Notes under the pieces: generated by a model
The model's database searches: none
The model's input: only the letters and a program-made list of their open reading frames with translations
Told to the model about the DNA's origin: nothing
Shown here: positions 6,460-30,498 of the stretch, in pieces
Position numbering within the stretch: position 1 is the stretch's first letter
How the letters are laid out: the number at the start of each line of letters is the position of its first letter
Source of the DNA: Candidatus Saccharimonadales bacterium
GTDB taxonomy: Bacteria > Patescibacteriota > UBA1384 > 2-12-FULL-50-11
Direction of reading: 5' to 3'
Assembly: GCA_035480235.1 (NCBI GenBank)
Contig: DATIHX010000003.1
Coordinates: forward strand, 85,514-149,513
DNA: 64,000 nt
Program-made: the position numbers and the translations under genes

Positions 6460-8679
6460 GTGACAAACACAGAAACCCCTGAGCCCTTAAACTCGGCTCC
6501 CAACCCAAAGATTGCTAAAGAAGCAATTGACATTAGCGACGCTGGCTCGGTTTTAAAACCGGTTTTTCAACCTAGGGCCGATCGGCCCGCCCGCGGCCCA
6601 CGTAACCGAAATAACCGACCAAAGTACCGGATGGGCCAGCGCGAGAACGTTTACAACACACCCAAAGACCAGCCGCTCGATATGACACTAACCAAACTAG
6701 CTGGCGGTGAAGCGGGAGTACCGCAAAGAAAATCCGAATATCGAAATCCGAAATCCGAACAACCCACCACACAGTCGCACCAAAGTAACCAAAACCGTCG
6801 GCCTGCTGGACCACCGCGCCATTACGGCGCCCCACCGACTCGCGAACAAGCGGTCGGCCAAGACGTCACCGACACCGAAAAGGCCGTCGACGCCGCTGGC
6901 TCAGCTCGGCCCAAACGCGCCGGTGGCCGGCCGCGTTCGCGTCGCGCCCAACGGCCAACCCCGTTCAAACCGCTGACTACCGCCGGCGAAAACCGCGTTA
7001 TCTCGAGCGCCAACCGCAACACCCTGCGGATTATTCCGCTGGGCGGCTCTGGCGAAACCGGCGACAAAAACATGCTGGTTTTCGAGTACAACAACGACAT
7101 TATCGTCGTTGACGCCGGCATCAAATTCCCGGGCCCAGACATGCCGGGCATCGACTACGTCATCTGCGACACTACTTATTTAGAAGAAAACAAAGCCAAG
7201 ATTAAGGCCTGGATTATTACCCACGGCCACGAAGACCATATCGGCGGCATGCCGTTTATTTGGCCGAAATTCCCGGTACCAATTTACACCGCCCCGCTAA
7301 CGGCCGGCTTTATTAAAGCTAAGTTCGAAGAGCACGGTATTCAGAACGCCGAGTTCCGGATTATTCTGCCCGGCGACCGGGTGCAAATCGGCGAATTTTT
7401 GATCGAGCCGGTTCAGATGACCCACTCGATTCCCGATATTTTGGGGATTGCCTTCACCACCCCAGCGGGGTTGGTTTACCACGCTACCGACTGGAAAGTC
7501 GACCTAACGCCGGCCTTCGGCAAACCAACCGATTTTGACAAGCTGGCCGAACTTTCTAAGCGTGGCGTGCTGGCGATGCTGTCGGACTCCACCGGTGTCT
7601 TGGTGCCCGGCCATACCTTGAGCGAAACGGTCGTCAGCCAAACCCTGGAAGACATTCTGGCCGGCCTCAAGGGCCGCGCCATCGTCACTAGCTTTGCTTC
7701 CCGGATCGACCGAATCCAGCACGTCATCGCCGCTTGTGCCAAAACCGGCCGCAAACTCTTTTTGGCCGGCCGGAGCATGGAGCGCAACGTCAATATCGCC
7801 ATGGAACTGGGTTATTTGAAAGTACCGCAAGGCATCTTAGGCGATATCCGCCAAATTAACAGCCTCCCCGACGACAAAATTGTGGTGATGAGTACCGGCT
7901 CGCAGGGCGAAGAAGGCTCGGCCTTAACCCGGATGGCCTCTGGCGAACACCGCCACGTTCGGATTAAGCCCGGCGATACCGTGGTCCTCTCCAGCTCGAC
8001 CGTCCCGGGCAATGAGAAGGCCGTTGAATTAAGTATCAATAACCTCTACCGGGCCGGTGCCGAAGTCATCACCAAAGCCGAGCTCGACGTTCACTCCACC
8101 GGCCACGGCTCCCGCGAAGAAATTAAACACGTGCTCGACATTGTTAAACCGAAATACCTCATCCCAATTCACGGCGACTACCGCCGCTTTGTAGAGATGC
8201 GCAAATTAGCCGGCGAGCTGGGCATCGCTTCAGACAATGTGCTGATTATCGAAAACGGCCAAGTCATTGAGTTCGCCGCTGGGGCGGGTGTTGGCAAAGT
8301 AACCGATGAAAAAGTGCCGGTCGGCCAAGTGTTGATCGATGGTTCTGGCGTCGGCGACGTTGGCGAGATTGTTTTGCGCGACCGCCAAACCATGGCCAAA
8401 GACGGCGTCTTCTTGGTGATTCTGACGGTCAACCGCAAAACTGGCCAGCTGGTTAGCTCGCCGGACGTCATCTCCCGCGGGTTTGTCTATATGAAAGAAT
8501 CCGAAGAACTGATCGCCGGGGCCCGGGCCTTAGCCAAACGCCTCCACGGCCAAATGACGGCTCGCCGTGGCGTCCGTTGGGACGAATTCAAAAAAGCTTT
8601 GCGCGACGACATTGGCGAGTATCTCTTCCAGAAGACCGAGCGCCAACCCATGGTCATTAGTGCTGTCATCCAAGTCTGA
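6460..8679 (+). CDS. rnj: Ribonuclease J (metallo-beta-lactamase/beta-CASP) with a roughly 187-aa basic low-complexity N-terminal extension
   Basis: LRIIPLGGSGETGDKNM…, the HGHEDHIGG motif, and …HSTGHGSREE… match RNase J. GTG start. Residues 1-187 are rich in R/P/Q/N. Confidence 0.9.
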   Translation: MTNTETPEPLNSAPNPKIAKEAIDISDAGSVLKPVFQPRADRPARGPRNRNNRPKYRMGQRENVYNTPKDQPLDMTLTKLAGGEAGVPQRKSEYRNPKSEQPTTQSHQSNQNRRPAGPPRHYGAPPTREQAVGQDVTDTEKAVDAAGSARPKRAGGRPRSRRAQRPTPFKPLTTAGENRVISSANRNTLRIIPLGGSGETGDKNMLVFEYNNDIIVVDAGIKFPGPDMPGIDYVICDTTYLEENKAKIKAWIITHGHEDHIGGMPFIWPKFPVPIYTAPLTAGFIKAKFEEHGIQNAEFRIILPGDRVQIGEFLIEPVQMTHSIPDILGIAFTTPAGLVYHATDWKVDLTPAFGKPTDFDKLAELSKRGVLAMLSDSTGVLVPGHTLSETVVSQTLEDILAGLKGRAIVTSFASRIDRIQHVIAACAKTGRKLFLAGRSMERNVNIAMELGYLKVPQGILGDIRQINSLPDDKIVVMSTGSQGEEGSALTRMASGEHRHVRIKPGDTVVLSSSTVPGNEKAVELSINNLYRAGAEVITKAELDVHSTGHGSREEIKHVLDIVKPKYLIPIHGDYRRFVEMRKLAGELGIASDNVLIIENGQVIEFAAGAGVGKVTDEKVPVGQVLIDGSGVGDVGEIVLRDRQTMAKDGVFLVILTVNRKTGQLVSSPDVISRGFVYMKESEELIAGARALAKRLHGQMTARRGVRWDEFKKALRDDIGEYLFQKTERQPMVISAVIQV

Positions 8680-8685
8680 GAATAT

Positions 8686-8722
8686 AAAAAAGCCCAGCTC
8701 CAGTTTTTTAAGCTGGGCTGGG
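8686..8722. terminator. Hairpin terminator, copy 1 of a duplicated 35-nt unit
   Basis: AGCCCAGCT-ccagtttttta-AGCTGGGCT lies between the convergent rnj and 8737..9021 genes, with a T-run on the minus strand. Confidence 0.65.
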
Positions 8723-8736
8723 TTGGGTGACGGGCG

Positions 8737-9021: not shown

Positions 9022-9093
9022 AATTTCCTCCAGGAACAAACAGTAAAAAAAGCTTAACAAAATACTGATGAACAGTCAAGGGTCAGGTAAAGA

Positions 9094-9127
9094 AAAGCCC
9101 AGCTCCAGTTTTTTAAGCTGGGCTGGG
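9094..9127 (-). terminator. Hairpin terminator, copy 2 of the duplicated 35-nt unit
   Basis: Same sequence as 8687-8722, with TTTTCTTT following on the minus strand. It lies downstream of 9214..9585. Confidence 0.6.
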
Positions 9128-9213
9128 GGTGGGGTCGGGGCTTGAAACCTGGGTTGGCCGGGTGACCGGTGGGATATCGGGTGGCGGCGTTTCCAACCAG
9201 GGGATGTCCTTGG

Positions 9214-9585
9214 TCATGCGCCTGCCGGTTGCTTGGCCTTGAGGGCGCAATCGAAGCTCGCGTTCATGATAGCGAGGAAACCATCCCCATAGGGTATGTA
9301 AGAGATAGCCCGATTAATTTGAAGCAAGATGATGCCCTGATCCCAGTCGATCTCTTTATCTTGGCCATCATCGGTTTTGTTGAGATGAAGGATTGGGCCA
9401 AAATCTTCCAAGGGCCGGCCGCTGGCTTCAACGGCAGCTTTACCGCGAAGCGGCGGGATGTAGGGAGTGTCCCTGCCCTTTTCGGCATAGCTCATCACGA
9501 ATTCTTCAACGCCTTCTGGTGATGAGTCGAGTAGGGTGCTAATAATTCCTCGGTTGTGGCGGTGGTCGCGCAGTGTTTCGCTCAT
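9214..9585 (-). CDS. Hypothetical protein (123 aa)
   Basis: GGAGG lies 9 nt upstream of the ATG (MSETLRD…). No motif recognised. Confidence 0.5.
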   Translation of the reverse strand: MSETLRDHRHNRGIISTLLDSSPEGVEEFVMSYAEKGRDTPYIPPLRGKAAVEASGRPLEDFGPILHLNKTDDGQDKEIDWDQGIILLQINRAISYIPYGDGFLAIMNASFDCALKAKQPAGA

Positions 9586-9716
9586 TGTTTGAGCCTCCAA
9601 AATTTTGATGTACCTAACGGCGGCCGAAACCAGCGTTAGATTGAAATAATTCTAGCCGATTTCGGGCTAGACTTCAATCCCCTGGCAAAAGCCGCCCAGG
9701 TTGGTACAGTAAATGC

Positions 9717-11768
9717 ATGGGTCTTTTTTCAAGGCGGCGGCGCTACGGCTCCCGTCGCAAGAAGCGGGTGCCGACAATTTGGGATAATTTAGTTTGGGCG
9801 GTTGAGCCCGACACCGCTCGGGAAATTATCGCCGTTGTCCTGATTATCTTTGGCGCGCTGTTTGCCCTCGGCCTCTTTCATTTGGCCGGCAATTTCGGCG
9901 AAGTGTTTTTTAAGCTGGCCGGCAATTTGTTCGGCGTTTTGAAATTTGTGGTGCCGTTTGTCTTTTTATACACCGGCATTCGCTTGCTAATCGTCAAATC
10001 CGAAGTCCTTCGGGCCACCAGTGTTATCGGCGTCGTTTTGCTATTTCTCTTAATCCCCGCTCTGTTTAACGCCCAGGGCGGCTCGATCGGTATTGGCGTG
10101 GCTAACGTTTTTACCTCGATTCTCAGTAAAGTCGGCGGCTTTATCGCGCTCTTCGGCGCTACCATCGTCGCCTTGCTGCTGGCCTTTAACGTTTCGCTGC
10201 GCAGTTTGTATGAGCGCTTCCAATTCGGCGGTAAAGAGGGCCAGGGCGTCAAGATTAACGAGAACCCGCGGGTGCCAGTGCGGACTATGAAGCCAGAGCG
10301 CGGCGGTATGGGGACGGCCCTGGTGGCGGGCTCCGAAAACTGGCAGTTCCCGTCGCTGGATTTAATCGACTACTCGTCTTCCACCAAGGCGGAAGCTGGC
10401 GACATCGGCAAAAACGTTGAGGTTATTAAGAAGACTCTCAAAGACTTTGGCGTGGAGGTGGCGATGAGCGAAGTCAACGTCGGCCCAACGCTGACGCAGT
10501 ACACCTTGAAGCCGAGCGAAGGCGTCAAACTGAACACGATTACGGCCCGCTCCAACGATATCGCCCTGGCCCTGGCCGCTCACCCGATTCGGGTCGAAGC
10601 GCCGATTCCCGGCAAGAGCCTGGTTGGTATTGAGGTACCCAACAAAGTGGCAGCGATGGTTAGTTTGCGCGAGGTTTTGGAGGCGCCGGAATACAAAGAC
10701 GTTACATCGAATTTGGCCTTGGCCCTCGGCCGCGACGTCGCCGGCAAAGTGATGGTGGCTGATCTCAAAAAAATGCCGCACTTGCTGATCGCCGGCGCCA
10801 CCGGCAGCGGTAAATCGGTTTGTATGAACGCCATTTTGGTCAATTTATTGTATAAAAACGCGCCGTCGGACTTGCGCTTAATCCTGATCGACCCGAAGCG
10901 CGTCGAATTTGTGGAGTACAACGGCATCCCCCACTTGCTGACTAGCGTGGTGACCGAAACCGACAAGATTATTTCGACGCTGCGCTGGGCCGTCGCCGAG
11001 ATGGAACGCCGCTATCAAACCTTGGCGTCGCACAACAAGCGCAATATCGACGCCTTCAACGAGGCGATCCCGGACGGTGAGCAAAAGATGCCGTACATCG
11101 TGATTGTGATCGACGAATTAGCCGATTTAATGACCCAAGCCGCTAACGAAGTGGAAGCCTCGGTGGTCCGGATCGCCCAGATGGCCCGGGCCGTCGGAAT
11201 GCATTTGATCGTCGCTACCCAACGGCCGAGCGTGGACGTCATTACCGGTCTGATTAAAGCCAACATCCCGGCCCGAATCGCCTTTGCCGTCGCCTCGATG
11301 CCGGATTCGCGGACGATTTTGGACCAAGGCGGCGCCGACAAATTGCTCGGCCGCGGCGACATGCTGTATTTGAACTCCGATCAGCCGCAACCGCGTCGGG
11401 CTCAGGGCGTTTTCCTCAAAGACAAAGAGATTAAAGCCGTTACCGATTGGGTCAAATCCCAAGCCCCACCGGTCTACGACGACACTATCACCACCTACCG
11501 TTCGGCCGGCCACGGCAGCCACAGCGGCCTGGGCACCGGCGGCGACCACGATGGTGGCGGTGACGACGAGCTCTTCAACGACGCCCGCGATTTATGTATT
11601 CAAGCCGGCAAAGCCTCGGCTAGTTTGTTGCAGCGCCGCCTGAAAGTCGGCTACGCCCGCGCCGCTCGTCTCCTTGATCTGCTGGAAGCTGAGGGCATTA
11701 TTGGCCCAGCCGACGGCGCCAAACCCCGCGATGTCCTAGTCGCCCCCGACGACTACCAGGGATCGTAA
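9717..11768 (+). CDS. ftsK: DNA translocase FtsK/SpoIIIE
   Basis: N-terminal TM helices, Walker A GATGSGKS, …IVIDELADLM…, …ATQRPSVDVITG…, and a C-terminal gamma winged-helix (LLQRRLKVGYARAARLLDLLE). Confidence 0.95.
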   Translation: MGLFSRRRRYGSRRKKRVPTIWDNLVWAVEPDTAREIIAVVLIIFGALFALGLFHLAGNFGEVFFKLAGNLFGVLKFVVPFVFLYTGIRLLIVKSEVLRATSVIGVVLLFLLIPALFNAQGGSIGIGVANVFTSILSKVGGFIALFGATIVALLLAFNVSLRSLYERFQFGGKEGQGVKINENPRVPVRTMKPERGGMGTALVAGSENWQFPSLDLIDYSSSTKAEAGDIGKNVEVIKKTLKDFGVEVAMSEVNVGPTLTQYTLKPSEGVKLNTITARSNDIALALAAHPIRVEAPIPGKSLVGIEVPNKVAAMVSLREVLEAPEYKDVTSNLALALGRDVAGKVMVADLKKMPHLLIAGATGSGKSVCMNAILVNLLYKNAPSDLRLILIDPKRVEFVEYNGIPHLLTSVVTETDKIISTLRWAVAEMERRYQTLASHNKRNIDAFNEAIPDGEQKMPYIVIVIDELADLMTQAANEVEASVVRIAQMARAVGMHLIVATQRPSVDVITGLIKANIPARIAFAVASMPDSRTILDQGGADKLLGRGDMLYLNSDQPQPRRAQGVFLKDKEIKAVTDWVKSQAPPVYDDTITTYRSAGHGSHSGLGTGGDHDGGGDDELFNDARDLCIQAGKASASLLQRRLKVGYARAARLLDLLEAEGIIGPADGAKPRDVLVAPDDYQGS

Positions 11769-16610: not shown

Positions 16611-18986
16611 ATGGCCGGAGGAAAAACGAAAGAAGTGGTTTGGTTCGCCGAAGTCACCAAGGACGACATTCCGCTGGTTGGCGGCAAGGGGGCTAACTTA
16701 GGCGAAATGAGCCGCGCTGGTCTGCCGGTGCCGCCAGGCTTTATCGTCACGAGTGCGGCTTACTTTAATTTCGTGAAAGCTAAGGGAATCGACAACTATA
16801 TCCGCAAATGGACGAAAGACTTGGACCCCGAAGATTCCAAGGCACTCAATAAAATCGCTGCCGAACTCCAAAAAGCGATGAAAGAGTTCAAGCTGCCAGA
16901 GGCGCTTGTCAAAGAAATTGAAAAAGCCTACGACGAGATGCATCAAGGACCGGTGGCCGTTCGTTCCTCGGCAACGGCAGAAGATTTACCAGGCAACTCG
17001 TTTGCCGGCCAACAAGCGACATTCTTAAACGTCGAGGGAAAAACCCAGCTAATTAAGGCGATCCGGGAGTGCTGGGCCTCACTCTTTGAGGCCAGAGCGA
17101 TTTACTACCGAACCGTCAACAAGTTCGACCACTTGTCCGTTGGTATCGCTGTGCCGGTGCAGAAAATGGTCCAGAGCGAAGTCTCGGGTATTATGTTTAC
17201 TGTTGATCCGGTTGATTCGGATCTAACGAAAATTGTGATTGATGCCGGTTTGGGGCTGGGTGAAGCGATCGTTTCCGGTTCAGTGACGCCGGACCATTAC
17301 GTTGTGGCCAAAGACGACTTCAAAATTGTTTCGAAAGAAATCGGCGCCCAAGATTGGCAGATCATTCACGACGGCAAAGACAAAAACAAGCACGTCAAAC
17401 TAACTAAAGAACAAAAAGAGGGCCAAAAACTAACCGACGAACAAATAGTCACGCTGGCTAAGCTCGGTAAAAAAGTGGAAGACCACTACAAAAAGCCGCA
17501 AGACACCGAGTGGGCTTTTGAGGGCGGCAGTTTTTACATGGTTCAAGCCAGGCCGGTGACGACCTTGAAGGGCAAATCCGAAACCCTAAATCCTAAATCC
17601 GAAACAAACTCCAATGCTCAAAATCCAAATATCGAAACTGAAGCGGCCGATTTATCTAAGGCCGAGGTGATTGTGACTGGCGCTGGCGCCTCGGTGGGGA
17701 TGAAATCCGGCCCGGTCAAAATTATCCACAAACCCTCAGAAATTGACCAAGTGAAAATTGGCGACGTTTTGGTAACCGAGATGACGAGCCCCGACTACGT
17801 GCCAGCGATGAAACGGGCAGCCGCCATCGTGACGGACACGGGGGGTCGCACCAGCCATGCCTCGATCGTGAGTCGAGAATTGGGTATCCCCTGCGTGGTT
17901 GGCTCTGGCACTGCCACGACCGCGCTGAAAACCGGCCAAATTGTGACCGTCGACGGTACCAGCGGTAAAGTTTACAAAGGCAAAATTGATCCGCCAACTG
18001 GCGGAGCCGGCAATCTTTCAATCCCCACCCAAGCCGTTGTTGGCCGGGCCACCGGCACGCAAGCCGTGATGACGGTGCCGGTCACCGCTACCAAAGTCTA
18101 TTTGAACTTGGCCGAGCCGGATAAAGCCGAGGAGTACGCCCAGCTGCCGGTCGACGGCGTCGGCTTGCTCCGAGCCGAGTTTATTATCGCCGGCATCGGC
18201 GAGCACCCCCGGGCGATGATGGCGGCAGGCCGGGCTAAAGAATACGTTCAAAAACTGGCCGCCGGAATTTCCACGATCGCCCAAGCCTTTCACCCCCGGC
18301 CGGTCGTGTACCGCTTCACCGACTTCAAAAGTAACGAATATAAATCGCTCAAAGGTGGTGACAAGTATGAGCAGCCGGAAAATAACCCGATGATCGGTTT
18401 CCGCGGGGCCTCCCGTTACATCGCTGAACCAGACGAATTTGCCTTGGAAATCGAAGCGATCAAGCGCGTTCGCGACGGCTTGGATCTAAAAAATTTGCAC
18501 GTGATGATCCCCTTTGTTCGAACTGTCGATGAGTTTCTGAAAGTTCGCGATCTGATGCACCGCGACGGCCTCAAGCAAAGCTCGGATTTCAAGCTCTGGA
18601 TTATGTGCGAAGTGCCGTCGGTGGTGCTGGAACTGCAGCGCTACATCGACGAAGGCATCGACGGCGTCTCGATCGGCTCCAACGACTTGACGCAGCTAAC
18701 CCTCGGCATCGATCGCGACTCGATGAAACTCGCCTCAGAATTTGACGAGCGTTACCCGGCTGTTTTGAACTCAATTTTGCACGTCGTCCGGGTTTGCCGG
18801 AAAAACCACGTCACTTGCTCGATCTGCGGCCAAGCGCCCAGCGTTTACCCGGAAATTACCGAAGCGATGGTCCGGGCCGGCACAACCAGCGTTTCCGTCG
18901 CTCCCGACGTCGCTGTTTCCACCCGCAAACTCATCGCCTCAGTTGAGAAAAAAATCCTCCTTGCCAACGCTATCGATAATGGGTAG
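16611..18986 (+). CDS. ppsA: Phosphoenolpyruvate synthase (pyruvate, water dikinase)
   Basis: N-terminal ATP-grasp (VGGKGANLGEM…PVPPGF), phosphohistidine swivel (GGRTSHASIVSRELGIPCVVG), and a C-terminal PEP-utilising TIM barrel (…SIGSNDLTQLTLG…). It carries a low-complexity linker insert. Confidence 0.9.
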   Translation: MAGGKTKEVVWFAEVTKDDIPLVGGKGANLGEMSRAGLPVPPGFIVTSAAYFNFVKAKGIDNYIRKWTKDLDPEDSKALNKIAAELQKAMKEFKLPEALVKEIEKAYDEMHQGPVAVRSSATAEDLPGNSFAGQQATFLNVEGKTQLIKAIRECWASLFEARAIYYRTVNKFDHLSVGIAVPVQKMVQSEVSGIMFTVDPVDSDLTKIVIDAGLGLGEAIVSGSVTPDHYVVAKDDFKIVSKEIGAQDWQIIHDGKDKNKHVKLTKEQKEGQKLTDEQIVTLAKLGKKVEDHYKKPQDTEWAFEGGSFYMVQARPVTTLKGKSETLNPKSETNSNAQNPNIETEAADLSKAEVIVTGAGASVGMKSGPVKIIHKPSEIDQVKIGDVLVTEMTSPDYVPAMKRAAAIVTDTGGRTSHASIVSRELGIPCVVGSGTATTALKTGQIVTVDGTSGKVYKGKIDPPTGGAGNLSIPTQAVVGRATGTQAVMTVPVTATKVYLNLAEPDKAEEYAQLPVDGVGLLRAEFIIAGIGEHPRAMMAAGRAKEYVQKLAAGISTIAQAFHPRPVVYRFTDFKSNEYKSLKGGDKYEQPENNPMIGFRGASRYIAEPDEFALEIEAIKRVRDGLDLKNLHVMIPFVRTVDEFLKVRDLMHRDGLKQSSDFKLWIMCEVPSVVLELQRYIDEGIDGVSIGSNDLTQLTLGIDRDSMKLASEFDERYPAVLNSILHVVRVCRKNHVTCSICGQAPSVYPEITEAMVRAGTTSVSVAPDVAVSTRKLIASVEKKILLANAIDNG

Positions 18987-23357: not shown

Positions 23358-23364
23358 TTATTTT

Positions 23365-23392
23365 TACCTAAAAAAAGAACCGCCGGCTAGGC
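23365..23392 (-). repeat. Copy 1 of a repeated terminator/RBS junction
   Basis: TACCTAAAAAAAGAACCGCCGGCTAGGC is 27/28 identical to 24142-24169. Confidence 0.6.
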
Positions 23393-23393
23393 A

Positions 23394-24131
23394 CTAATTT
23401 TCCGACTCTTGATGGGGGGCGTAAAACTCTTCACCCAAACGGAGCTCTTGCGGGTGCTCTCGAATGAACGCCGCGGTCTTGGCTAGCGATTCCTTTGGTA
23501 AGATAACACCAGTTATGAACACGCTAGTATCGTCGTGATGATAACCGTCTTGGTCCTCGAATAATCGGCCGCCAAAACTTTGGCAAAGAGCTTGGGCACG
23601 ACCTAATTTCTGTTGGTAATCGGCAGGAAAAGCCGGCTTAGGCTCCCAATAGTCCCCTTCCATAGGAGCTATATCGTAAACGAGGCAGATCTCCCCCTCC
23701 TTTACCTGTTCCTCAGAGTCAAAGCGATAGCCCTGCACTCGAGGCTTATAGGTTTCTCCTGGCAGAAGGTTTTCAGCGTCAACGTTCCAGTTCCCTCCCG
23801 AAAGATCTTCCGAGGTGAGAATAGAGAATTCTGGTAACCCCAGCTCTTCGAGGGTTCGATCGGTTCGAATTATATCAACTAAAATGTCGTTTCCGGTCCT
23901 GTTGATTTTCGCTCCAACTTCTGTTAAAGAAAGATGAATCTGGTGACGGTCGCCCTCTAATTCTACTAGCTGTTGTTGGGCCTCTAAGTCAGTTGGGTCG
24001 ACATGAAGACGGCGAAAGTTTTTGATTTTTTGATAACTAACCCGGTAGGATTCTAATAGTTTGCTATAGTCTCTAATCGCCCGATCTCGCTCATCCCATT
24101 GTTCGGCCGCAGACGGACCAGATTCTCTCAT
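23394..24131 (-). CDS. Hypothetical protein (245 aa, orphan)
   Basis: Long ORF with no motif recognised. Confidence 0.55.
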   Translation of the reverse strand: MRESGPSAAEQWDERDRAIRDYSKLLESYRVSYQKIKNFRRLHVDPTDLEAQQQLVELEGDRHQIHLSLTEVGAKINRTGNDILVDIIRTDRTLEELGLPEFSILTSEDLSGGNWNVDAENLLPGETYKPRVQGYRFDSEEQVKEGEICLVYDIAPMEGDYWEPKPAFPADYQQKLGRAQALCQSFGGRLFEDQDGYHHDDTSVFITGVILPKESLAKTAAFIREHPQELRLGEEFYAPHQESEN

Positions 24132-24141
24132 AACTTTATTT

Positions 24142-24169
24142 CTACCTAAAAAAAGAACCGCCGACTAGG
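24142..24169 (-). terminator. Copy 2 of the repeated junction, serving as the terminator of msrB
   Basis: On the minus strand: CCGCC-tagtc-GGCGG followed by TTCTTTTTTT, then AGGTAGAAATAA before the next ATG. Confidence 0.6.
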
Positions 24170-24174
24170 CGGAA

Positions 24175-28531: not shown

Positions 28532-28620
28532 CGGAAGGGGAGGGATTTGAACCCTCGATGCCCTTGCGGGCATACGACATTTCCAATGTCGCGCAATAAG
28601 CCGGGCTATGCGACCCTTCC
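28532..28620 (-). tRNA. tRNA-Ser (anticodon GGA)
   Basis: Cloverleaf read by hand: acceptor GGAAGGG/CCCTTCC, anticodon stem CGACA/TGTCG with loop TTGGAAA, a long variable arm (GCCCGCAAGGGC), T-arm GAGGG-TTCAAAT-CCCTC, and discriminator G. Confidence 0.9.
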
Positions 28621-28665: not shown

Positions 28666-30498
28666 ATGGGCAATGAAGTTGAAGAAGTTAAGGCGCGGGT
28701 AGACTTGGTAGATTTGGTCAGCCAATACGTCACCTTGAAAAAGGCCGGCGCCAACTACAAAGGTAGCTGTCCGTTCCACCAGGAGAAAACGGCCTCGCTG
28801 ATGGTCAGCCCCCAAAAACAGATTTGGAAATGTTTTGGCTGCGGTAAAGGCGGCGATGCGTTCAAATTCGTGATGGAAATTGAGCATTTAGAGTTCGGCG
28901 ACGCGCTTAGAATGCTGGCTCAAAAAGCCGGGGTGACGCTTCAGCCGCGAACAAAAGCCGAACATCAAACCCAGGGACGGAAAGAAAAACTTTACCGGAT
29001 TAATAATTTAGCCAGCCTGGTTTGGCAAAAACTGCTCTGGGAGGGCGAAGCCGGCCAAGCGGCGCTCGGTTATTTAAAAAACCGCCAAATTACCGAACAA
29101 ACCATTAAACTTTTCCGCCTCGGTTGGGCGCCGAAAAACTTAAACTTACGAACATTAATGGCTAAGCACGAAGTAACCGCTGGCGACCTCAGCACCGCCG
29201 GTAACCCAGAAAAGTTTTACGAACGAATAATGTTCCCGATTTTTGACGTGCTGGGTAACGTCATCGCTTTCACCGGCCGAACTCTGGGCGACGGCCAACC
29301 CAAGTACTTAAACTCGCCGGAGACGCCGCTCTACGCCAAAAGCCGGGTTTTGTACGGGCTAAATTTCGCCAAAGCCGGCATTAAAGAAAAGAATTACGTG
29401 GTTTTAGTGGAGGGCCAGATGGATGTAGTGGCCCTGCATCAAGCCGGCGCCACCAACACCGTTGCCAGCTCCGGCACAGCGATTACCGAATCGCAATTAA
29501 TTATTCTGAGCAAATACACCGATAGTTTCTTGCTGGCCTTTGACGCCGACGCCGCCGGCATTAACACTACTAAAAAAGTCATCGAGCTGTGTTTGAAAAA
29601 CGACCTTAACGTTAAAGTGGCCGATTTCGGCGAGTACAAAGACGCCGGCGAACTGCTGGCGAATGACCCGAAAGCCTGGCCCGACAAGGTTAAAACGGCC
29701 GAGGAAGCGGTCGAGTGGTTGCTGCAAAAAGAAATCGCCCAAATTGGCGAGCCGCGGTTTGTGGAAAACAAAAAAGCGCTCATCAAAGCGTTATTGCCGG
29801 TGCTGGCGCTGATTAGTGAACCGACCCGGCTGGACCACTACGTCGCCCGCCTCGGCCAAGCGATGGAGGTGAAGCCGGAAGCGCTTTACGAGTCACTCAA
29901 AAGAGTTAAATCCCAAATCCCTTCGTTGGGAAACTCCACGTTGGAGCGAAGCGAAAAAAATCCCAAATCCCAAACAAACTCCAATACTCAAACCGTCAAT
30001 TCTAAAATAATTCTCACCCCCGAAGAGCAGCTGCTGGCGCTTTTCCTCCATCGCCCCAGCCTGCTGGATAAACACCGCCAAGCTTTTGATGAGATCGTTT
30101 GGCAGAGCGCCGAGGCTGACCGGATTGCCAATGTCATCGGAAGTTGTTACAATGACAAGACTTTGGTGAAAAACTCGGCTCAGTTCTCAGCCCGGGTGAA
30201 AACTACTCTAAACTCACAACTAGATGAGAAAATCTCGTCGAATCCTCAAAATTCCCCCACTCCTGAAGAAAAACTCGACGGTTGGCAGTTTTGGCTTTCC
30301 AGCGCCTGGCCAAACCTCGACGACAACTTAGCCGACGAACTCGTCGCCGAAAAAATCGGCCAATTAGCGACCAAATCATACGAGCACAGCAAAGAAAAAT
30401 TGGCTCAAGCGATTCGGGTCGCCCAAGAAAAAGATGACGGCGCTGAAATCAAAAAACTGATGCAAAAACTCAACCAACTAACCAAACGCTATGACTAA
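28666..30498 (+). CDS. dnaG: DNA primase DnaG
   Basis: Zinc ribbon (CPFHQEKTASLMVSP…WKCFGCGKGGD), a TOPRIM region (VVLVEGQMDVV…AFDADAAG), and a divergent C-terminus carrying the low-complexity insert. Confidence 0.92.
   Translation: MGNEVEEVKARVDLVDLVSQYVTLKKAGANYKGSCPFHQEKTASLMVSPQKQIWKCFGCGKGGDAFKFVMEIEHLEFGDALRMLAQKAGVTLQPRTKAEHQTQGRKEKLYRINNLASLVWQKLLWEGEAGQAALGYLKNRQITEQTIKLFRLGWAPKNLNLRTLMAKHEVTAGDLSTAGNPEKFYERIMFPIFDVLGNVIAFTGRTLGDGQPKYLNSPETPLYAKSRVLYGLNFAKAGIKEKNYVVLVEGQMDVVALHQAGATNTVASSGTAITESQLIILSKYTDSFLLAFDADAAGINTTKKVIELCLKNDLNVKVADFGEYKDAGELLANDPKAWPDKVKTAEEAVEWLLQKEIAQIGEPRFVENKKALIKALLPVLALISEPTRLDHYVARLGQAMEVKPEALYESLKRVKSQIPSLGNSTLERSEKNPKSQTNSNTQTVNSKIILTPEEQLLALFLHRPSLLDKHRQAFDEIVWQSAEADRIANVIGSCYNDKTLVKNSAQFSARVKTTLNSQLDEKISSNPQNSPTPEEKLDGWQFWLSSAWPNLDDNLADELVAEKIGQLATKSYEHSKEKLAQAIRVAQEKDDGAEIKKLMQKLNQLTKRYD

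Follow-up and report, generated by a model that had tools for sequence, protein, structure and literature searches.

Three genes in one 64-kb stretch of a Candidatus Saccharimonadales genome (contig DATIHX010000003.1, positions 85,514 to 149,513; the whole stretch is called the window below, and its G+C content is 52%) carry closely similar low-complexity DNA in frame: ppsA, encoding phosphoenolpyruvate (PEP) synthase, dnaG, encoding primase, and rnj, encoding RNase J. The source is an ultra-small bacterium of the candidate phyla radiation (Patescibacteria), near Berkelbacteria. A sequence-only reading had taken these segments for a small in-frame insertion module, or for the outcome of gene conversion, spreading through surface loops of essential proteins. 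We find instead that the object is a heptanucleotide microsatellite in linker-coding DNA and no discrete insertion module: the segments are tandem arrays of period 7, and at the site in question all PpsA orthologues have a linker, comparable in length. It is probable that they are heptanucleotide simple-sequence repeats (SSRs) of the type AAATCCN, lying in frame in linker or tail DNA, which were made by slippage, filtered by reading frame and strand, and copied from one to another. The identities of the carrier genes were confirmed by Pfam, but their housekeeping status is incidental; what they have in common is a disordered, mutation-tolerant linker.

Four heptanucleotide arrays in three genes

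Gene identities were taken from Pfam domain matches and tandem arrays from Tandem Repeats Finder (TRF). All four arrays of the window lie inside Pfam-confirmed open reading frames (ORFs), with none intergenic, and in each of them the sense strand is the G-free strand. The rnj gene (6460..8679, + strand; RNase_J_b_CASP, RNase_J_C and Lactamase_B) has a disordered N-terminal extension ahead of the metallo-beta-lactamase fold, which starts at about residue 203. Array 1 lies in this extension at 6730..6759 (+; period 7, TRF score 44, 4.3 copies of AAATCCG), is parsed as AAATCCG AATATCG AAATCCG AAATCCG AAC.. and is translated as KSEYRNPKSE, the module occupying residues 90-100. In ppsA (16611..18986, +), array 2 lies in inter-domain linker 1, the module (residues 322-344) falling between the domains PPDK_N (21-327) and PEP-utilizers (the mobile domain, 384-452); PEP-utilizers_C (481-779) comes after these. 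It spans 17574..17639 (+; period 7, TRF score 41), with 4.4 copies of AAATCCG at 17574-17604 followed by degenerate units, parsed as AAATCCG AAACCCT AAATCCT AAATCCG AAAC-AAACTCC AATGCTC AAAATCC AAATATCG AAAC and translated as KSETLNPKSETNSNAQNPNIET. The linker before the C-terminal domain of dnaG (28666..30498, +; Zn_ribbon_DnaG, DNAG_N and Toprim) holds the other two. Array 3 (29908..29921, +; AAATCCCAAATCCC) consists of two units, reads K S Q I P in a frame that differs from that of array 4, and has a partial complement, TTCGTTGGGA, directly 3′ of it. Array 4 (29958..29992, +; period 7, 2.4 copies of AAATCCC at 29958-29974) is parsed as AAATCCC AAATCCC AAAC-AAACTCC AATACTC AAA and translated as NPKSQTNSNTQ.

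The likeness between these genes is much closer than shuffled sequence would give. As the sequence-only reading had stated, the 35-mers of ppsA (17588..17622, +, AAATCCTAAATCCGAAACAAACTCCAATGCTCAAA) and dnaG (array 4, AAATCCCAAATCCCAAACAAACTCCAATACTCAAA) are identical at 32 of 35 positions in a common frame (AAT CCN AAA TCC), the peptides being NPKSETNSNAQ and NPKSQTNSNTQ. The 35-mer has two matches in the window against 0.00 expected from shuffles, and the pair (repeat family D13, 91% identity) has the highest identity among the window's listed repeat families of about 35 nucleotides (nt). The heptamer-pair motif AAATCCNAAATCC occurs four times (6744, 17588, 29908 and 29958) against 0.03 expected. 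The piece said to be shared by rnj and ppsA is also present, with 15 of 16 positions identical between AATCCGAATATCGAAA (6731-6746) and AATCCAAATATCGAAA (17622-17637) and two matches against 0.02 expected, but here the frames differ, a point that had escaped the earlier reading: the word AATCCNAATATCGAAA is translated as SEYR in rnj but as NPNIE in ppsA. Likewise, within dnaG the word AAATCCCAAATCC gives KSQIP at 29908 and NPKS at 29958. The same DNA word is translated differently between copies because the 7-nt units run through the three frames in turn, so that three heptamers (21 nt, or 7 amino acids, aa) take an array through all of them (KSETLNP, KSETNSN and so on).

Codon usage does not account for this likeness. 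When both peptides were held fixed and their codons were resampled 200,000 times from the usage of 49 window ORFs, 30 or more identical bases out of 33 were reached with P = 5.7e-4 (0.057% of trials; mean 22.9), and the modules use minority codons (Ser TCC 13%, Thr ACA 10%, Asn AAT 37%, Pro CCT 8%). The match between ppsA and dnaG is a DNA-level relation for which codon bias is no explanation, and on this point, with its rare codons and its words read in different frames, the earlier claim held.

The expectation of a disordered loop agrees with structure prediction, as AlphaFold gave a predicted local distance difference test score (pLDDT) <50 and no secondary structure over PpsA residues 321-348 and 462-489 and DnaG residues 420-446 and 521-528. 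The last of these belongs to a second variable DnaG insertion at 30236-30265 (KISSNPQNSPTPEEK), coded by G-poor DNA of similar flavour (AATCCTCAAAATTCCCCCACTCC), which is missing in most orthologues and far longer in protein P0122. The Rfam search of the window gave a tRNA at 28532-28620 as its sole match, with no structured RNA family at the arrays. The ATG in AAACTCCAATGCTC was considered as an internal start and rejected because it is out of frame.

Linkers in orthologues and the spread of period-7 arrays

A hypervariable linker of about 25-35 aa between the ATP-grasp and mobile domains was present in all 34 PpsA orthologues and likewise in 80 further loci. In locus L001, which has the closest sequence-related orthologue (PpsA 87% aa identity; ppsA gene-wide 76.3% nt identity, 48% at third positions) the linker is homologous, diverged and of the same length, with 28 of the 35 positions of the 35-mer kept, and the DnaG linkers of L121 and L122 are without the module. 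These two are the closest DnaG orthologues (77% aa each by BLAST; 81% and 77% in alignment), and the window linker exceeds each of theirs by exactly 7 aa (21 nt). In the ppsA of L121, a closer relative (81% nt), the similarity to the 35-mer is gone (16/35), and in a peptide-level comparison the PpsA proteins P0018 and P0020 (75-76% aa) have near-identical linker peptides. The N-terminal extension of RNase J varies among relatives from about 60 to 190 aa, and that of L124 holds AAATCCCAAATCC (NPKS) at a different position. Separately, a short module K(A/S)NPPAGG(P/Q)(S/T)S is common to the DnaG linker of L121 (dnaG 9157-11052) and the RNase J tail of L124 (1069-1110), the DNA being identical at 21 of 27 positions (AATCCGCCCGCCGGCGGACCAAGTTCC and AACCCACCTGCCGGCGGACAAACTTCC).

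We analyzed tandem repeats in 1.2 Mb of DNA from the candidate phyla radiation (CPR), comprising the window, L001, L121, L122 and L123-L202, with 60-nt block shuffles that keep local composition as controls. At a TRF score of at least 40, there were 26 arrays of period 7 against 0.0 in shuffles and 31 of period 14 against 6.6, with no other period above 27 in the real DNA; at a score of at least 50, the corresponding figures were 12 against 0 and 8 against 0.2, with five real arrays of period 15 and two or fewer of any other. Period 7 is the dominant short tandem repeat in related CPR DNA. Its positions within ppsA were then assessed in 72 non-redundant genes. Arrays of period 7, 14 or 21 fell in linker 1 in 11 cases, in linker 2 in three and in the other 85% of the gene in two; the counts for arrays of other 3n periods were 1, 0 and 14, respectively. 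The heptamer units vary by lineage (AAATCAA, AAAGAGC, AAAGCAA, AAGTCAA, AAAGTTC, AATTAAA, AAAAGAA and GTGGGAA). One and the same PpsA linker has been rebuilt repeatedly by heptamer arrays of different units, and this recurrence therefore argues for local generation rather than for one inserted element. In DnaG, period-7 or period-14 arrays occupy the linkers of L122 and L124 at a site matching that of the window. An AAATCC/AAATTC-type array also lies directly upstream of the ppsA start codon in 4 of 80 CPR loci (L126:9880-9925, L138:7658-7690, L152:1259-1335 and L193:2601-2664); the one in L193 forms a long hairpin, and a second array lies just downstream of the gene.

Arrays of the window's type extend well beyond the CPR. 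A scan of 185,579 species genomes with the pattern AAATCCNAAATCC-N(1-12)-AAACTCCA returned at least 119 loci against about 13 for uniform random sequence, a figure that is our own rough estimate on a uniform-random baseline only. The matches listed include Verrucomicrobiota, Planctomycetota, Chloroflexota, Bacteroidota, Cyanobacteria, Acidobacteriota, several CPR phyla and archaea, with isolates among them, and their flanks hold additional A3-Y3-N heptamers. Period-7 arrays with a score of at least 40 numbered 53 in the loci from other phyla against 0.0 in shuffles, and non-hit regions of the family genomes gave, at a score of at least 50, 30 arrays of period 7, 11 of period 14, 9 of period 15 and 6 or fewer of the rest. 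In viral contigs the pattern matched four times and two composition-matched control heptamers 0 and 4 times, too few to rank AAATCC. Telomere-like contamination was rejected as a source, since the arrays sit in ordinary bacterial contigs, including those of isolate genomes. A terminator or promoter role for the intergenic members was also dropped, as their gene contexts (about 12 convergent, 13 divergent and 40 tandem among the matches listed) are those of random intergenic DNA. In two Verrucomicrobia, an identical 41-nt AAATCC-type array (L012:4764-4796 and L057:1105-1137) precedes an orthologous methylthiotransferase-like gene by 32 nt, between flanks that have diverged; the complementary arm in L057 is translated as the C-terminal tail of the neighbouring gene (..NSKSQISNPK).

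Proposed copying between genes and the alternatives to it

The possibility that arrays are copied between genes is raised by a pair of closely related CPR loci, L157 and L159. Their NTP-transferase genes (assigned by Pfam) are 95% identical and have one 21-nt indel in a loop (L159:13190-13243, L157:13173-13200). The extra sequence of L159 is AAAGAGC AAAGAGT AAAGAGC, the local units being different ones (AAAGATC, AAAAAGC), and together with its flank it forms a 24-mer that is found again without a mismatch, variant T unit included, in the linker array of that genome's ppsA, 2.2 kb upstream (L159:10928-10961). This exact match of 21 nt (3 x 7) between genes, judged from sequence comparison, points to copying between loci, and with such a parallel the gene-conversion part of the earlier proposal is plausible for the window, although its discrete insert is not. 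In L122, the ppsA and dnaG linkers have the unit AACTRGN in common and are identical at 23 of 29 positions (GGAACTAGCAACTGGCAACTCGGTACTAG and GGAACTGGGAACTAGAAACTTGGGACTAG). The DnaG array there (11307-11336, GGAACTG GGAACTA GAAACTT GGGACTA) is followed about 20 nt on by an inverted complement (11354-11380, ACCAGTA CCCAGTC ACCAGTA CCTAGTA), so that the stretch resembling ppsA is also the first arm of a potential hairpin lying wholly in coding DNA.

For the window itself, we used as a null pairs of family members from different loci with equal gap length (5-12 nt), scoring identity at unconstrained positions. Among the matches listed, 14 of 573 such pairs reach the identity of the window pair (12/15, or 0.8), and the gap-5 architecture of the window copies occurs in 6 of 122 members, to which either window copy matches at best at 11 of 15 positions. 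The window also holds four arrays of one unit in 64 kb; in the other 1.1 Mb of CPR DNA there is about one strict AAATCCN array per 100-150 kb, and the density in the window is several-fold higher. Units within a distance of 1 of each other make up 22% of within-locus pairs and 10% of pairs between loci (permutation P ~0.01), and the 7 aa by which the window's DnaG linker exceeds those of L121 and L122 also speak for copying. From the excess over the family null and the array density, within-genome copying is therefore favoured, and the 32/35 identity of ppsA and dnaG has probably arisen in this way.

Several points weigh against this interpretation. The comparison of units within and between loci draws in part on the window, itself ascertained, and on some pairs of hairpin arms. 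The indel between L157 and L159 may be a gain in the one or a loss in the other. With intergenic arrays of two Verrucomicrobia, the dnaG 35-mer agrees at 33 of 35 positions, more than with ppsA; these arrays had been preselected out of 596 Gb with a pattern in which 20 positions are fixed, but a restricted A3-Y3-N vocabulary alone can yield high identity. The ppsA array looks older from these comparisons than a typical microsatellite: it is kept in L001 and, as peptide, in P0018 and P0020, although the closer L121 has lost it. Such an age requires continuing homogenisation or some unnamed constraint. Finally, no relative was found that is near enough to reveal variation in unit number in the window's own arrays; L121 has none of them.

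These observations bear on a reading without any copying between genes, in which each array arose independently in place and the likeness reflects a narrow heptamer vocabulary (AAA, three pyrimidines and N) of mutational or functional cause. The excess of pattern loci across many phyla agrees with it, as do the match of the unrelated Verrucomicrobia arrays, the irregular 11-mer AAACAAAYTCC, which recurs in several phyla, and the place of AAATCC-type units among the commonest recurring units in CPR loci. It is less easily reconciled with the closeness of the window pair relative to the gap-5 members and to the 573 family pairs, with four arrays in 64 kb, or with a 24-mer common to two genes of L159 down to its variant unit. 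On balance we regard it as somewhat unlikely.

A small in-frame mobile element of the Rickettsia palindromic, miniature inverted-repeat or intervening-sequence hairpin type would make the window copies single hairpin arms in tolerant loops. The wider family gives this idea some substance. Among the matches listed, a strongly complementary G/T-rich arm within 250 nt accompanies 33 of 122 members and 3 of 120 controls, complementary words are enriched downstream only (GGATTT 17 against 2.2 expected, GGAGTTT 8 against 0.4), and 63% of members lie between genes and show no preference for either orientation with respect to them, as for selfish DNA; several copies are present in some genomes. The ppsA array, compared by hand, shares its unit architecture with an intergenic hairpin arm of Brennerbacteria (L034), and one copy forms an extension of about 65 bp of helix 45 in a Saccharibacteria 23S rRNA. 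The copies in ppsA and rnj, both on the + strand, however, have no complementary GGATTT-type arm near them in a pattern search of both strands, and stems around the dnaG arrays are of 5-6 bp only. Similarity fades gradually at the array boundaries, orthologue linkers are of comparable length, and terminal repeats or target duplications at the copies and flanks were not evident by inspection, no dedicated search having been run. Nor was an association with transposases seen, and the different heptamer units at the same ppsA site point to local generation. Rickettsia palindromic elements are in-frame selfish repeats of about 100-150 bp, palindromic and with defined ends. Like them, the window copies are repeated DNA that conserved proteins accept in frame at exposed surfaces, and repeats of both kinds also occur in RNA genes and between genes; unlike them, the window copies are tandem arrays of 14-66 nt with no second arm, no defined ends and no sharp boundaries against empty sites. 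A mobile element thus appears quite doubtful for the window.

Several features of the hairpins and of mobile DNA in these genes were recorded alongside. Among the matches listed (L002-L120), nearly every array with a complementary arm has its C-rich arm on the 5′ side and its G/T-rich arm on the 3′ side, whichever strand it occupies, a polarity that the search did not impose. The rRNA extension (L065:3340-3480, - strand) is a stem-loop of about 130 nt with a folding energy of -45.9 kcal/mol (z = -5.4); its 5′ arm, AAATTCTAAATCCGAAATCCTAAACTCCAAACAAATTCCAAATCTC..., is in the vocabulary of the ppsA linker and its 3′ arm is the G/U-rich complement, and the same rRNA gene has two group I introns by Rfam. 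Rfam matches in 20 family loci were to rRNA, tRNA and introns, with nothing overlapping the arrays except this 23S rRNA. Seven PpsA proteins (P0060, P0067 and P0071-P0075) and DnaG P0211 are 400-500 aa longer than usual, with intein/homing-endonuclease Pfam matches (PF14890, PF14528, PF05204); these genuine mobile insertions, in frame in CPR PpsA and DnaG, have no relation to the heptamer arrays.

Convergence at the protein level, by selection for a flexible N/K/S/P/E-rich linker together with codon bias, would suit the hydrophilic, disorder-favouring residues that all copies encode and their confinement to linkers, but it is effectively refuted by the codon control with its rare codons, by identical words in different frames (the rnj/ppsA 16-mer, dnaG arrays 3 and 4) and by a 7-nt periodicity that is not a property of peptides, and we consider it highly improbable.

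Under slippage, filtering and cross-copying, which we prefer, strand slippage in a 7-nt register would make and reshape the arrays. Within genes, only those changes would survive that add or remove 21 nt in all, or three units (7 aa), and the surviving orientation would be the one that places the G-free, A-rich strand in the mRNA. This strand encodes residues well suited to linkers (K/S/E/N/P/T/Q), and its complement would encode G/F/W/L/D. Arrays within one genome may then template each other, by ectopic repair or gene conversion over short homology, which would carry one unit type into several genes and probably gave the 91%-identical 35-mer of ppsA and dnaG. Because its array is common to orthologues, ppsA would be the likelier donor. 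No role beyond that of a flexible spacer is implied. Contingency repeats switch genes on and off, as do the 7-bp repeats controlling expression of HMW1A in Haemophilus influenzae. Such phase-variable loci are alike in having slippage-prone heptanucleotide tracts tied to genes, but in the window there is no sign of switching, and only 21-nt changes can persist, because a single-unit slip would destroy a housekeeping enzyme.

Two further repeat pairs were seen in the window. Two 52-nt copies, 87% identical (8683-8734 and 9088-9139; TAWAR AAAAGCCCAGCTCCAGTTTTTTAAGCTGGGCTGGG...), flank a small ORF region just 3′ of rnj and resemble paired terminator hairpins. Two intergenic 35-nt copies, 94% identical (23358-23392 and 24136-24170; TTATTTNTACCTAAAAAAAGAACCGCCGRCTAGGC), bracket an ORF at 23394-24131.

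Relation to known heptamer repeats and meaning for linker evolution

Heptamers are described as the most abundant class of long SSR in most bacterial genomes, polymerase slippage having been proposed as their source, and SSRs of coding regions as having mostly units in multiples of three (Mrazek, 2007, to the extent related in PMC4679880 and PMC4692102). The arrays studied here share with long heptanucleotide SSRs, as far as these are described there, their tandem 7-nt units, an excess of period 7 over other non-triplet periods, units that vary by lineage and the proposed slippage. In the window, the 7-nt copies stand head to tail, more often than local composition would give. A change in unit number between close relatives is represented by the 21-nt indel of L157 and L159; of the window's own relatives, L121 has none of its arrays and L001 has the same length. 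Compared with the SSRs as described in those sources, the present arrays differ in lying in frame within housekeeping genes, in recurring at one linker and in having units common to several genes.

Literature searches with the repeat sequences and with short-tandem-repeat terms returned nothing relevant, and a keyword search led to two reports of specific heptamers. The GGGAATC repeats of Xanthomonas and the GGGGA(T/C)T repeats of Nostoc are intergenic, capable of forming G-quadruplexes (at least four G-tracts) and have been studied as regulators (PMC4692102). The sequences are close, AAATCCC being the reverse complement of GGGATTT, which is near GGGGATT and GGGAATC, and in both systems the units are heterogeneous, lengths vary between relatives and inverted pairs occur now and then. 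Unlike them, the window arrays are coding and always have the C-rich strand as sense. None has more than two CCC units, and in ppsA and rnj most units are of the TCCG or TCCT kind; the arrays have neither four runs of at least three G or C nor an intergenic site. Direct repeats of TAACTGA occur in Beggiatoaceae, cyanobacteria and Bacteroidetes, mostly just upstream of start codons and occasionally in ORFs of hypothetical proteins, where three units encode LSVISYQ (PMC4679880). Here too a specific heptamer is common to distant phyla without a known transfer mechanism, and three units yield a 7-aa repeat; the ORF cases differ in that they are not linkers of conserved enzymes, and copying between loci was not shown for them. 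Enzyme linkers built from heptamer arrays, with units shared between genes, appear not to have been described in the literature searched.

In conserved multidomain enzymes, hypervariable linkers are usually treated as drifting peptide; the arrays give them a concrete origin in mutation. The linkers considered here are microsatellite DNA constrained by reading frame and strand only, and this accounts for near-identical nucleotide stretches in unrelated proteins of the same genome without horizontal transfer or a mobile element. For annotation and phylogenetics there is a warning in this, in that array segments are not homologous characters. The arrays also offer natural length-polymorphic markers, in steps of 21 nt, for uncultured CPR populations. 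Should copying between loci be general, it would amount to small-scale concerted evolution inside housekeeping genes. More tentatively, heptamer microsatellites may recurrently write enzyme linkers and loops in the CPR, and perhaps more widely, and be copied between genes to give each genome a dialect of its own, such as AAATCCN in the window, AACTRGN in L122 and AAAGAGC in L157 and L159, the same generating process also giving rise to intergenic hairpins and rRNA helix extensions in other phyla. If this is true, linker evolution would have an engine at the level of DNA, in which a single 7-nt unit, passing through the three reading frames, gives rise to a 7-aa repeat.

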